From: Escherichia phage W143
DNA: 64,000 nt
Sequence record: MZ189262.1
Strand: one strand, 5' to 3'
The notes under the pieces were generated by a model. That model was not told where the DNA came from and ran no database searches. It saw nothing but the letters and a program-made list of their open reading frames with translations. A program made the position numbers and the translations under genes. Every line of letters starts with the position of its first letter. Positions within the stretch are counted from its first letter, which is position 1. Below are positions 12,440 to 32,420 of this stretch, one piece after another.

Positions 12440-13441
12440 TTACTTAATTAACTGTAAAGCTTGTTCCAGACGATCAAGACGATTAACAGATTCTTCCCAA
12501 ATCCTTTTAGCCTGCTCATATTCTTTCTGCGCTTTATTAGAAATTTCTAGAGCTTCTTTATAAGCTTTTTCTAATGCAATAACTTCTGGACGAATTTCGA
12601 CAGGTTTAGGCGAATCATCAAGATTATCCATTAGTTCCTCAAGTGTAGTTTCTTCTTTAGGAGTATTCACAATTTCATCACATTTTTGTTGGTAAATTTC
12701 TTTATCAGTCGGTGAATAAGCACATTTCACTTCACGAAGACTAACTACAATTTTATATCCTTCCCAACCGCATATATTCTTAAAAGGATAAGTATGAATA
12801 TTTTCTACCGTTTCCATACAAAGTAATGCGGTTTCTAATTGACGAGTTATAGTGCTAGCAATTGAGAAAAATTTATTAATATTCTTTTGGTTAGTTTCTG
12901 GTGTAAAAAATCCATAATTCACAAAAATAGCTACTTTATTTTTATCAAGCTCATATTCTTTTACGATAATCATATCAGAAGCCAAAGGATGAATTTGACG
13001 ATAATCGCCATAACATAATTTAGAAGCTGATTTTAGAATCTGTCCTTTGAAAAGTCTGAAATTACTAATCCAACGACGAGTAAAAATATTCTCAGGGTCT
13101 TCTTTATTATTAAGATGATAAGAATTAACATCACCGAACCAATTATATCCTACTACATCTTTGGTTCGTTTAATTTCTTTCCCAAAATTACCAAGAATAT
13201 CCCGATTAACCAAATATGAAAGAAGACGAGACTCTTTAAAGGTTTTCTTGATAACATCTTTATCTACACGACTAGAAATTTTACGAATTTCATGAATAAA
13301 TTTAGTAGAAGAAACAATACTCGCGTCAACGCTATTGAGCCATTGATTGATAATAGAAATAACGCTATTTTGGCCAAACACCGGTATAGCTTTATCATCA
13401 ATAACACTATTGAATGATTTGATATATTCGTTACGAGTCAT
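12440..13441 (-). CDS. Hypothetical protein with C-terminal coiled coil (333 aa), family member B
   Basis: Track start at 13492 lies inside the promoter; ATG 13441 (MTRNEY) has SD GAGGAG; coiled-coil tail. Confidence 0.55.
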   Translation of the reverse strand: MTRNEYIKSFNSVIDDKAIPVFGQNSVISIINQWLNSVDASIVSSTKFIHEIRKISSRVDKDVIKKTFKESRLLSYLVNRDILGNFGKEIKRTKDVVGYNWFGDVNSYHLNNKEDPENIFTRRWISNFRLFKGQILKSASKLCYGDYRQIHPLASDMIIVKEYELDKNKVAIFVNYGFFTPETNQKNINKFFSIASTITRQLETALLCMETVENIHTYPFKNICGWEGYKIVVSLREVKCAYSPTDKEIYQQKCDEIVNTPKEETTLEELMDNLDDSPKPVEIRPEVIALEKAYKEALEISNKAQKEYEQAKRIWEESVNRLDRLEQALQLIK

Positions 13442-13469
13442 ATTAATCTCCTCAGTAGAAAGTAAGAAC

Positions 13470-13499
13470 ATTATACCACATCCTTGTGGCAAAGTAAAC
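13470..13499 (-). promoter_or_regulatory. Early promoter GTTTAC-N18-TATAAT with hairpin in the spacer
   Basis: -35 at 13494-13499 overlaps the stop of the upstream gene; -10 at 13470-13475. Confidence 0.55.
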
Positions 13500-28346: not shown

Positions 28347-28672
28347 TTAGAAAATAAATTTATCCAAGATTGCTCTTTAATTAAAAATGGCTCAGAATCA
28401 TATGCCATTAAACTTTGGGTAATTAGTCCTTTAAAAGGCCCATCAATAAATTCCATGGTAAAATATGGAATTTTATTCATTAATCTTGCATTAGGAGCAG
28501 TGCACAAAACTCTGCATCCTTTGAATACGCCTTTTTGTAATTTGTATTGCTTAGGATAAAATTCGCTCAAGACGTTGTTATTTGCCAAAATTTCAAAATG
28601 ATTCACCAATTTATTTTTAATAGTTTTTGGCGAAAAATAAAGATATTCGAAAAGTTGCGTGTCTGTCATCAT
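28343..28672 (-). CDS. Hypothetical protein (109 aa)
   Basis: ATG 28672 forms an ATGA overlap with the upstream stop. Confidence 0.45.
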
Positions 28673-29208
28673 TGCATTCCGATTACGAAAAACTGCGGAC
28701 GAGTAATACCACCAATGCAACAATTACTATTGCAGCAGTGTTGTACAGTGTCAATATGGACGCTATAAATCTTATCCATATCAGGAGATTTAACAGGCTC
28801 ATCGATTATATACAAAATCCGCGAAAGCGATAAACCTCTGAACTTGCTTCCTTTATTACCGATAAAACTACGGACAGAATCGGTAAATAAACGAAAACGT
28901 ATATCATCATTAGAATAACGCGAAAATTCCTTTTTAATGTTATTTGCAGAAATTTTAGCGTAAGCTGAAGTATTAGAAAGAACAATAACTGTTCCACCGT
29001 CATACAACCAATTAGCGGCAAAATTAGTTACTGCAGTTGATTTACCGGATTGACGTCCACCATCTAGTCGAAGTGTGCAATACTGCTTAAGTAAGTCTTC
29101 AAATGGCGGGATATATTCGTTTTTACAAATTTCTTCTACTCTAGCATCAGAATGGTGTGTAAAAGCATTCATCAGGGATAGATAAGGACCAGTTAAAAAT
29201 GTTCTCAT
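28669..29208 (-). CDS. Small P-loop NTPase-like protein (179 aa)
   Basis: Walker A GGRQSGKST and Walker B-like ILYIIDE; ATG 29208 follows GAGAGAATAAA. Confidence 0.5.
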   Translation of the reverse strand: MRTFLTGPYLSLMNAFTHHSDARVEEICKNEYIPPFEDLLKQYCTLRLDGGRQSGKSTAVTNFAANWLYDGGTVIVLSNTSAYAKISANNIKKEFSRYSNDDIRFRLFTDSVRSFIGNKGSKFRGLSLSRILYIIDEPVKSPDMDKIYSVHIDTVQHCCNSNCCIGGITRPQFFVIGMQ

Positions 29209-29223
29209 TTTATTCTCTCTAAA

Positions 29224-29300
29224 TTTGGGCCATTCCATGGCGCATGAATTGTCCATTTCTGTATTTACCCATTACCGCACTTGGGCTCGACCTTATTACA
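29224..29300 (-). repeat. Intergenic repeat copy 1 (homologous to 29821-29895)
   Basis: 40-nt core about 90 percent identical between copies by hand alignment. Confidence 0.55.
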
Positions 29301-29411
29301 GGTTGGCGGGAATCCCTCACAGAATCATGAGGTCCAGCTTGTTCCCATGTTATTTGAATGTAAATATTTTTGCCTTAATACTTATACCAGTGTGGCTTCA
29401 TTAAAATTTTT

Positions 29412-29478
29412 TCATCGAGTCATTTTACCTCTCCAAGTAATTATGAATATACTATCACAATTTTAGGAGAAAGTAAAC
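29412..29478 (-). other. denV-like promoter-leader-start remnant followed by a 3-codon ORF
   Basis: GTTTAC-N18-TAGTAT (29449-29478) then leader and ATGACTCG aligning with the denV promoter/leader/start at 31558-31615; reading frame stops after three codons. Confidence 0.5.
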
Positions 29479-29480
29479 TA

Positions 29481-29783
29481 TTATTTACCTTTAATTACTT
29501 TAGCTGCTTCGATAGCCGCTTGCTGAAGGTCATCCATAGACATACCGAATTTAGAAGCAAAGTTATCAATTTTCTTTTCGACAGCATTCAAAGGCTTGGC
29601 CTGTTTACCTTCATTAGCGCCAGGAAGAGCGAGAATACGTTCTTTGTCAATATAAAGGCTTACAAGTTTCTTACGGTCTTTATCGGACAAATCATGAAAT
29701 GAATGGGCCTTTTTATTTATAGCGGCTTCTAATTTACCTGCACTCACTCGCGCTTCAGTAATAAATTCTTGATATGTTTTCAT
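29481..29783 (-). CDS. ipII: Internal protein II
   Basis: 100 aa; capsid-targeting leader MKTYQEFITE|A; SD AAGGAA. Confidence 0.8.
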   Translation of the reverse strand: MKTYQEFITEARVSAGKLEAAINKKAHSFHDLSDKDRKKLVSLYIDKERILALPGANEGKQAKPLNAVEKKIDNFASKFGMSMDDLQQAAIEAAKVIKGK

Positions 29784-29820
29784 ATGTTTCCTTTAAATGT
29801 AAATAGTTTTATTCTTTAAG

Positions 29821-29895
29821 TTTGGGACAATTCGCACGCATGAATTGTCCGTTTCTATATTTATCTATTACCGGGTTCGAACTCGGCTTTATTAA
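29821..29895 (-). repeat. Intergenic repeat copy 2 with 9-bp hairpin GGACAATTC/GAATTGTCC
   Basis: Hairpin at 29824-29849; lies between the ipIII stop and ipII start. Confidence 0.55.
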
Positions 29896-30473
29896 GAATT
29901 ACCACGGGCTGCATTAGCAACGGCGTAAGCGTACTGAACATTAGCGTCTTTAAACGTACCTTTAGAGGTATCTAGTTCTGCCTTAAAGCCGCCTTTAGCC
30001 ATAACATCGGCAAATTCTTTACGGAAAGCCATTGCATCAAGACCTTTCCATGATGATTTGTGCTTAGCGAATTCAAGACCAGCGTAGTTGACAGCTTTAG
30101 CCAATTTATTATCAATGACCCATTTACCGGCTTTAGGCACAAACTTCGGGCCTTTTTGTTTAGAGAACAGTTTTAAATTCCAGCGACGAAGATCACTGTC
30201 GGCTTTAACAAAAGCTGCGTCTAAGTTACTAGCAACAACATCTTCAATATGAGCAAATTTAAGTCCGTCAACTTCAATATTTAAATCGGTACGCCAGCGA
30301 AGTCCTTCCCAAGCGAAAGCTTTAAAATCGGAAGCTTTTGTAGCTAAGTATCGTTCAATAGGGGCTGTTTTAGGGTCAAAGCCGTTTCCACCACGATAGT
30401 TCCACTCGTCCTTATTAATGCCTTTGGCCTTTACTACAGAAGCTTCAGCAATAAATTCTTGATACGTTTTCAT
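29892..30473 (-). CDS. ipIII: Internal protein III
   Basis: 193 aa; leader MKTYQEFIAE|A. Confidence 0.8.
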   Translation of the reverse strand: MKTYQEFIAEASVVKAKGINKDEWNYRGGNGFDPKTAPIERYLATKASDFKAFAWEGLRWRTDLNIEVDGLKFAHIEDVVASNLDAAFVKADSDLRRWNLKLFSKQKGPKFVPKAGKWVIDNKLAKAVNYAGLEFAKHKSSWKGLDAMAFRKEFADVMAKGGFKAELDTSKGTFKDANVQYAYAVANAARGNS

Positions 30474-30499: not shown

Positions 30500-30814
30500 T
30501 TATTCTTTAGGGAAGTTTTTAGAGTATGCGTCATAAAGTTTATTACCGATGCGTCGGAAAACTCTAGCTGCAAAACGGTTTTCAGGGTTTTTAATCATGA
30601 TTTGCATCATGTAAGTTCCTGCATCCGAAAGAGCTTCTTCATAGTACCCATTAATTTCTTTAAGAGTCCTACGTTTACCACCAGGACCATCAACAGTAAT
30701 TTTCCATTTACCTGTAGAAGTGCGGCTCGGTGGCTCAACTTGTTCAATCCAAATATAACCACCTTCAACGCGTTGGTTGGCGGATTCTGCAATAAATTCT
30801 TTATACGTTTTCAT
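30500..30814 (-). CDS. Internal-protein-like capsid-targeted protein (104 aa)
   Basis: Leader MKTYKEFIAE|S; body not recognisable to me as IPI, IPII or IPIII. Confidence 0.65.
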   Translation of the reverse strand: MKTYKEFIAESANQRVEGGYIWIEQVEPPSRTSTGKWKITVDGPGGKRRTLKEINGYYEEALSDAGTYMMQIMIKNPENRFAARVFRRIGNKLYDAYSKNFPKE

Positions 30815-30877: not shown

Positions 30878-31138
30878 TTAAGCTTCACCGCCAGAAATAA
30901 TTCCGAAGTTGTTAAAATCGTATCCAATATCGTCAACATCTACTTTAGGACTTGCAGCAACATAAGCAATTTCACTACGTTTTGCATAGGTGTTGATTTC
31001 TTTACCATCACCACCTAAGAAAAAATACCCATTACGTTTTAATGAGCCAAAGTCTTCCGCATCACCAATGAAAGCTTTAACTTTAAATTTAGGACCTTTG
31101 GCATCTGCTTCAGCGATAAATTCTTGATACATTTTCAT
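30878..31138 (-). CDS. Internal-protein-like capsid-targeted protein (86 aa)
   Basis: Leader MKMYQEFIAE|A; divergent body. Confidence 0.65.
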   Translation of the reverse strand: MKMYQEFIAEADAKGPKFKVKAFIGDAEDFGSLKRNGYFFLGGDGKEINTYAKRSEIAYVAASPKVDVDDIGYDFNNFGIISGGEA

Positions 31139-31144
31139 TTTTCC

Positions 31145-31558
31145 TTAGTAAATTGATTTACCATAGTATTTGTACCAAGTAGGGCGTTGAGCAATTTTTT
31201 CATCTAAGCGAGCTTGACTTATCGCAATGGACGCTTCGGACGGGACATAATTATTACGAAATTCGACAGGGATGTCGGAAATATCCTGGACAGTCGTGTC
31301 CTTGATTTTGAAACCACGTTTCAAGCATTCAGCGATTAGCTCGATTTGACGTAAACGTAAAAATTCTAGTTTGTCGTAAAAGAATGTTACGTGACCTGTG
31401 CCTAAGATAAATGTTGGAGAGATTTTAAAATCCTTTACACGTTTACCGTTTTGAACATGTTTACGGACTGCACCAAATACGCGTGGTAATTCACGATACT
31501 CAGCCATAAGATGTTGGTCGGTCAGTTCAGAAACAAGTGTTAAATTGATACGAGTCAT
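31145..31558 (-). CDS. denV: Endonuclease V (pyrimidine-dimer DNA glycosylase)
   Basis: Track start is TTG 31570; ATG 31558 gives 137 aa starting [12 protein letters not shown], matching my recollection of T4 endonuclease V. Confidence 0.9.

Positions 31559-31617: not shown

Positions 31618-32420
<803 letters not shown>

Follow-up and report, generated by a model that had tools for sequence, protein, structure and literature searches.

In the 64,000-nt stretch of Escherichia phage W143 DNA that we analyzed (MZ189262.1; hereafter, the window), positions 29478-29354 on the minus strand are very probably a pseudogene of denV, the UV-repair gene for T4 endonuclease V, which carries a large internal deletion and lies, with its own early promoter and stem-loop, where T4 has denV. 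The denV(A) pseudogene itself (29354-29423, minus) consists of 8 nt of the denV 5′ end joined to the last 62 nt of the gene (29415-29354). It opens with a mini-ORF, ATG ACT CGA TGA (29412-29423, minus), made of the denV start codon and 5 further nucleotides followed by a frameshifted stop. A first-pass annotation of the sequence had described only positions 29412-29478, as a remnant of a promoter, leader and start codon. The motifs that it listed are present, but the feature is longer than it proposed: the last 62 nt of denV follow ATGACTCG, so that the pseudogene reaches 29354.

The phage belongs to the Tevenvirinae, and the closest record in our phage collection was SP1 (96.8% identity over 90% of a 3.8-kb query). 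Every gene in the neighborhood of the relic is transcribed from the minus strand. Listed in transcriptional order, these are e, encoding lysozyme (32384-31896); ipX, an ip-like gene of 93 aa (31899-31618); a promoter and stem-loop (31615-31559) followed by an intact denV of 137 aa that we call denV* (31145-31558; Pfam PF03013 Pyr_excise, E = 3e-14); two ip genes of 86 aa (ip86, 31138-30878) and 104 aa (30814-30500); ipIII (30473-29892); and ipII, which encodes the 100-aa internal protein II (29481-29783), ends in TAA at 29483-29481 and lies directly upstream of the relic. By tblastn, ipII is 94% identical at the amino acid level to T4 ipII and 100% identical to ipII of SH-2, JS09, and TB004. 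The promoter and start codon of the relic (29478-29412) fall between ipII and the first gene downstream, a 179-aa homologue of vs.8 (28669-29208, minus; 97% amino acid identity to T4 vs.8 by tblastn). Between the relic and vs.8 lies a segment, U (29209-29353, minus), that normally borders a T4-position denV on its 3′ side and is collinear with T4, fFiEco06, VIPECOOM01 and others. As the T4 annotation gives the order e-ipIII-ipII-denV-vs.8, the earlier statement that T4 denV adjoins ipII was correct, as was the observation that the intact denV of the window lies on the far side of the ip block.

A global alignment of the window with the denV locus of fFiEco06, where the order is e-denV-vs.8, gave 267 identical columns out of 281 (95%), with both flanks aligned and a single gap of 347 nt. 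Relative to denV of fFiEco06 and VIPECOOM01, the deletion removes ORF nt 3-349, a length not divisible by 3. GACTCG stands at either end of the gap in this alignment (ORF nt 3-8 and 350-355), and the hexamer occupies the two positions in fFiEco06, VIPECOOM01, JE01, and SH-2. One copy is left at the junction in the window (29421-29416, minus), which is the pattern of a deletion between short direct repeats. The fFiEco06 gene reads ...GGAGGGATAAAATGACTCGTATT... and, beyond the intervening ORF, ...CAACAACGACTCGATGAAAAAATTTTAATGAAGCCACACTGGTATAAGTATTACGGCAAAAATATTTACATTTAAATAACATGGGAA...; the relic reads ...GGAGAGGTAAAATGACTCGATGAAAAAATTTTAATGAAGCCACACTGGTATAAGTATTAAGGCAAAAATATTTACATTCAAATAACATGGGAA.... 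By our count from the alignment, the 62-nt tail matches denV at 60 positions, and tblastn recognized residues 118-138 of allele-A DenV at the relic with 95% identity. Homology to denV is thus seen at the nucleotide level and at the syntenic position between ipII and vs.8, as in T4 and VIPECOOM01. Since ORF nt 3-349 are deleted and the frame stops after three codons, the copy is a pseudogene rather than a gene. The Pyr_excise domain (aa 1-87 in both denV alleles by Pfam) falls wholly within the deleted part. The tail has decayed further, with an internal TAC changed to TAA and the old TAA stop now reading CAA (29356-29354). Because both endpoints of the deletion lie at GACTCG inside the denV ORF, and the promoter and leader are untouched, the proposal that the feature is a scar of recombination between promoter-leader sequences was not borne out. 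A scan of 28900-30100 against Rfam returned only chance-level hits.

The promoter that precedes the relic, P(A) (29449-29478, minus), has the T4 early promoter layout, with GTTTAC at 29478-29473, an 18-nt spacer and TAGTAT at 29454-29449. This confirmed the first-pass description of a GTTTAC-N18-TAGTAT promoter, a leader and ATG ACT CGA TGA, all on the minus strand and directly after the ipII stop. The GTTTAC-N18 arrangement is common to 13 other minus-strand sites in the window; P(A) was not listed by a generic sigma-70 scan, with 8/12 matches by our count. A stem-loop is built around the −10 box (29424-29477, minus), with the Shine-Dalgarno sequence GGAG (29434-29431) in its 3′ arm. The RNA hairpin predicted here has a free energy of −17.4 kcal/mol (z = −3.1), and hairpins of similar build are predicted at the denV* promoter of the window (−21.3), the T4 denV promoter (−18.0) and the fFiEco06 promoter (−23.0). 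The promoter/stem-loop architecture is thus kept in four alleles, although their sequences are only 64-76% alike. The T4 record X04567 labels the corresponding inverted repeat C/C′ "put. stem-loop; pot. transcription terminator (IpII)" and places the denV −10 box in its loop and the ribosome binding site in C′.

A query that joined the end of ipII and the promoter to 275 nt of allele-A denV found about 10 phages in which all three are contiguous, and we inspected two of these phages. Both VIPECOOM01 and JE01 have the order e-ipIII-ipII-P-denV(A)-vs.8, with an intact denV ORF of 417 nt (138 aa). Their promoter-leader, from the promoter to ATGACTCG, is identical to that of the relic at 62 of 63 positions, and their ipIII-ipII spacer is identical to that of the window. 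In promoter comparisons, the relic was 98% identical to the VIPECOOM01 promoter between ipII and denV, 92% to the fFiEco06 promoter between e and denV, 91% to the T4 promoter between e and ipIII (first 44 nt), 74% to the window denV* promoter and 71% to the T4 denV promoter. The 3′ fragment of the relic is likewise of allele A, the fFiEco06/VIPECOOM01 type with the C terminus ...LDEKILMKPHWYKYYGKNIYI, and not of the T4-like allele that the window carries as denV*. DenV* is 91% identical to T4 DenV at the amino acid level, while T4-type denV genes are only ~77% identical to allele A (tblastn). JS09 and TU01, both of the genus Mosigvirus, and BGP also have the arrangement e-ipX-denV*-ip86, in which denV* is in an RB69/JS09-like position. 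The relic therefore derives from a denV at the T4 position beside ipII, as the allele-A tail and the synteny attest, and does not duplicate the promoter of denV*. Judged from these sequence comparisons, the ipIII-ipII-P-relic-U-vs.8 part of the window is a module of the VIPECOOM01/JE01 type minus 347 nt, and the window joins two modules of different ancestry, its own denV* promoter not having been copied. The starting module is e-ipIII-ipII-P-denV(A)-U-vs.8, still intact in VIPECOOM01 and JE01. A 347-nt deletion between the GACTCG copies, presumably by replication slippage or illegitimate recombination at the short direct repeat, took out codons 2-116 and fused ATGACTCG out of frame to the last 62 nt. 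The divergent intact allele lies upstream, and the ipX-denV*-ip86 module to which it belongs is of RB69/JS09 type.

To find other phages with the same deletion, we used a 48-nt query centered on the junction, which an intact denV is unable to seed. It matched at full length in 14 phage records, representing 13 phages. The carriers belong to two genera, Tequatrovirus (SH-2 and SP1) and Mosigvirus (HX01 and PHB12), and differ in their upstream genes: SH-2 has e-P-denV(A)-ip104-ipII-relic; HX01 has e-ipX(split)-denV*-ipII-relic; and SP1 and PHB12 have e-ipX-denV*-ip86-ipIII-ipII-relic. Because the junction occurs in 14 independent records with differing upstream gene sets, we ruled out an assembly artifact. 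The relics are 95-100% identical to each other, and the five junction carriers that we compared for substitutions in the promoter versus the dead ORF were nearly identical. PHB12 differs from the other carriers only at the 3′ end of U, which suggests a recombination breakpoint there and movement of the module between genera. In SH-2 (L002 3300-3372 and 4082-4150), the tail of the relic has the substitutions AATAAAGCC and GGTACAAG, absent from other phages, in common with the 3′ end of that phage's intact denV(A), with TAC retained, a pattern that suggests gene conversion between the two. In IMG/VR, an exact-pattern scan for the relic tail gave no match, and a scan anchored on vs.8 yielded eight loci.

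The same T4-position denV(A) copy has been destroyed at least four separate times, each time at a short direct repeat. Besides the 347-nt deletion of ORF nt 3-349 at GACTCG (the window and 13 other phages), we found a 292-nt deletion of ORF nt 105-396 at GGCAAA in JS09 and TU01; a 187-nt deletion of ORF nt 109-295 at AA(C/T)GG in TB004; and a 506-nt deletion from nt −5 to 500 at a GGGTAAA-like repeat in G2133, which fuses the promoter to the vs.8 leader. The change of the stop codon from TAA to CAA is common to all relics and could be either one ancestral mutation or a product of recombination. The −35 and −10 hexamers of P(A) are intact in all four deletion lineages; the Shine-Dalgarno sequence is altered in SP1 (TTAGAGAGG) and JS09 (GGATGGG). 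Because the hexamers are intact in every deletion lineage, G2133 keeps the promoter by itself and SP1 and JS09 have, by contrast, a mutated Shine-Dalgarno sequence, the P(A) element probably still works, ending or attenuating ipII transcripts and starting early transcription into vs.8 and the genes downstream. The MTR mini-ORF and the 62-nt denV tail are probably inert.

The whole unit of ipII, promoter and relic may also be lost. Our repeat search revealed a 19-nt direct repeat (89% identity) between the ipII leader (29792-29810; AAAACTATTTACATTTAAA) and the denV(A) tail (29353-29371), whose copies flank this unit. Recombination across this repeat would remove ipII, the promoter and the relic in one event. 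In BGP and the IMG/VR loci L011 and L012, ipIII is followed by ...TATTTA(C/T)ATTCAAATAA(C/A)AT and then by U, and from their sequences these three look like recombinants in which the leader of ipII (TATTTACATTTAAAGG) was joined to the tail of denV (TATTTACATTCAAATAA). In ipII, as in other ip genes, the leader, ATTTACATTTAAAGGAAACATATG, opens with the last ~19 nt of the allele-A denV ORF. SH-2 and HY01 each have an ip gene directly after denV(A), at exactly this sequence shared by ip leader and denV tail.

The first-pass annotation had read the relic as a duplicate of the phage's own denV promoter, leader and start, left behind when denV crossed the ip block by cassette recombination between promoter-leader sequences. 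It had put the likeness to the window denV promoter at 75-80%. We collected the 14 minus-strand early promoter-leaders of the window (GTTTAC-N18-TAnnnT) and aligned them globally, all against all. The relic and the denV* promoter-leader (31615-31551) agreed in 49 of 66 columns (74%), and denV* was the best partner of the relic among the 14, ahead of partners at 69%, 68%, and 67%. This value is within the range of the promoter family: the mean is 61%, other unrelated pairs reach 73-76%, and neither blastn-short (word 7, E ≤ 10) nor the repeat search detected the pair. Within the window, the resemblance is thus essentially no greater than that among members of the promoter family, and we dropped the within-window alignment as a basis for the link to denV, since the pair is not separable from that family; the link survives through the comparison across genomes. 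Nor is the ATGACTCG start confined to the two promoters, as had been claimed, since a GTTTAC-N18-TATAAT promoter (13438-13499, minus) precedes a 332-aa gene that starts ATGACTCGT (MTRNEYI...). Duplication can still point to the stem-loop around the −10 box and the ATGACTCG start at both sites, to the promoter/stem-loop copies that flank ip cassettes at this locus in other phages and to a published cassette model (PMC2839356). However, the relic promoter nearly matches that of another denV allele (98%), whose 3′ end the relic also has, its breakpoints are in the ORF rather than in the promoter-leader, and denV*, being a different allele, was not moved from the relic site. We consider this duplication highly improbable.

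The background-level similarity within the window and the unrelated gene beginning ATGACTCGT would equally suit an ordinary T4 early promoter for vs.8 whose ATGACTCG start and likeness to denV are coincidental, and in G2133 the same promoter is indeed fused almost directly to the vs.8 leader. Coincidence is exceedingly improbable: beyond the junction comes a 62-nt piece of denV coding sequence, the site is orthologous to that of intact denV in VIPECOOM01, JE01, and T4, and longer pieces of denV lie at the same place in JS09, TU01, and TB004. As an account of origin this reading is refuted, and it is compatible with promoter function at present. It is also very unlikely that the relic was co-opted, with the stem-loop, the strong ribosome binding site and either the 3-codon ORF or an overlapping ATGAAAAAATTTTAA ORF forming a translated leader that regulates the vs.8 operon. 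Such co-option would account for the retention of the junction across two genera, and it draws on the identical junction in 14 records with differing upstream modules and on the intact promoter hexamers in all deletion lineages. But the Shine-Dalgarno mutations of SP1 and JS09, the nonsense change in the fragment and the complete deletion of the fragment in the G2133 and BGP lineages all speak against it, and the high identity among carriers fits recent shared descent and transfer without selection. More broadly, the decay may have been other than neutral, through selection against co-expressing two DenV alleles or for keeping the ipII terminator and vs.8-operon promoter as a co-opted leader. 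We regard this as rather unlikely; it draws on the at least four separate losses, the shared loss of the stop codon, the occurrence of the losses mostly in genomes with a second allele, and the sparing of the promoter and stem-loop each time. Simple decay of a denV gene at the T4 position by deletion at a short repeat remains our preferred reading.

As the window carries an intact denV*, the dead denV(A) copy is dispensable. Another intact denV was present in eight of the nine dead-copy carriers examined (the window, SH-2, HX01, SP1, PHB12, JS09, TU01, and G2133); the exception was TB004, whose T4-position denV is dead and whose locus contains no further denV. A tblastn search found denV in 1100 records, at 1104 places in total. 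Only four records thus had a second place, and that of JS09, which we inspected, was the truncated copy. Thus, among the 1100 records, with one of the four second places inspected, we found no genome with two intact copies of denV. Loss of denV recurs at both positions, since AV120 and the IMG/VR locus L010 are without denV altogether and L011 (4818-4925) keeps only the last 36 codons of denV*. In AV120 (L007 2497-2584), the promoter after e is joined to the leader of ip157. From these genomes, phages can evidently do without denV and frequently lose it. A second copy is probably lost faster when redundant, but redundancy is not required for loss, because TB004 has no other denV and AV120 and L010 have none.

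The element after ipII has a close counterpart in T4. The T4 ipII-denV element (X04567) lies at the same place, directly after the ipII stop, and the two are alike in layout: after the −35 box and the 5′ arm comes a loop with the −10 box, then a 3′ arm with GGAG, and then ATGACTCG. In T4 the element precedes an intact denV of 138 aa, whereas the gene in the window is gutted, and the elements are 71% identical. IP-locus elements of T-even phages were reportedly also the subject of work by Repoila and colleagues in 1994. T4-type phages contain PeSL (promoter-early stem-loop) cassettes (Arbiol et al., 2010, PMC2839356; Comeau et al., 2014, PMC4122927), for which a role in the shuffling of cassettes has been proposed, and the T-even IP elements are considered analogues, not homologues, of the PeSLs of RB49 and phi1 (Arbiol et al., 2010, PMC2839356). 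The window element resembles both PeSLs and IP-locus elements in combining an early promoter, a stable predicted stem-loop and a 3′ Shine-Dalgarno sequence and start codon in an intergenic position within a hyperplastic region. Moreover, copies of the element after e and after ipII bound ipIII-ipII in VIPECOOM01 and T4 (in VIPECOOM01, the e-ipIII and ipII-denV copies that flank ipIII-ipII are 89% alike over 44 nt); fFiEco06 lacks the cassette. The window retains a single copy of P(A). Unlike PeSL shuffling, the deletion in the relic used a 6-nt repeat inside the ORF and not the cassette repeats. On these comparisons, the idea of cassette exchange is supported elsewhere in the locus, in VIPECOOM01, T4, and fFiEco06, but not for the relic.

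Deletions between short direct repeats are known from studies of T4 rII, and spontaneous deletions of this kind were reportedly analyzed by Albertini and colleagues in 1982 (cited in PMC4122927). The denV(A) deletions are similar in that their endpoints lie at a direct repeat of 5-7 nt of which one copy is retained, four times independently; they differ in occurring in natural isolates rather than laboratory mutants. The nearest annotated parallel is JS09_060 ("DenV: Endonuclease V, N-glysidase"), a 45-aa ORF at the same locus, with the same allele and promoter and an intact denV* upstream. It keeps codons 1-35 after the 292-nt deletion and is annotated, whereas only 8 nt of the 5′ end survive in the 347-nt version of the window. 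Across its 14 records, the 347-nt relic is unannotated or lies under "hypothetical protein" calls, with small opposite-strand ORFs in HX01. Our literature search found no paper describing it.

The relic leaves known mechanisms unchanged: the kind of event is textbook, and its longer version in JS09 has already been annotated. It corrects the annotation of this stretch in 14 public phage records and adds to a decay series of one gene that runs from intact through internal deletions of 187, 292, and 347 nt to the promoter only and a 17-nt tail, with deletions at short repeats. The type IV restriction enzymes of the GmrSD family include distinct targets of inhibition by Ip2 and by Ip3, and Ip loci are described as hotspots of such inhibitors (PMC12373910). 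The Ip locus being an anti-restriction hotspot, the region is often reshuffled, and the neighboring denV ends up in two alleles. Two processes meet at the Ip2/Ip3 locus: exchange of promoter/stem-loop cassettes and microhomology deletion that clears redundant genes.

Several further features of the neighborhood emerged. U (29209-29350, minus) is strongly conserved across T4-like phages. A ~44-nt piece of it (about 29267-29310) is 89-95% identical to unannotated DNA of rV5-like phages (FV3, Murica, nomo, and others), and the repeat search revealed a second, partial copy (58 nt, 79%) between ipIII and ipII at 29837-29894. U had no Rfam match and no excess of predicted structure on either strand (z = 0.3). 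It contains a 33-aa ORF (29320-29219) that is closed by TAG in the window; in T4 this ORF continues in frame into vs.8, and the fusion is annotated as a 219-aa form.

The five ip genes have in common a 32-nt repeat in their 5′ coding sequence (75-100% identity; 29752-29783, 30442-30473, 30783-30814, 31107-31138, and 31868-31899) that encodes MKTY(Q/K/S)EF(I/L)...E, with MKMY in one copy. This part of ip genes is the region of the capsid-targeting signal (PMC12373910), and the repeat is another possible substrate for cassette recombination. Two public records contain probable annotation errors at this locus. In the HX01 RefSeq record (L020 4039-4199), the relic and U are covered by two very small "hypothetical proteins" called on the opposite strand, and in SP1 (L021 4187-4774) vs.8 is labeled "large terminase subunit".
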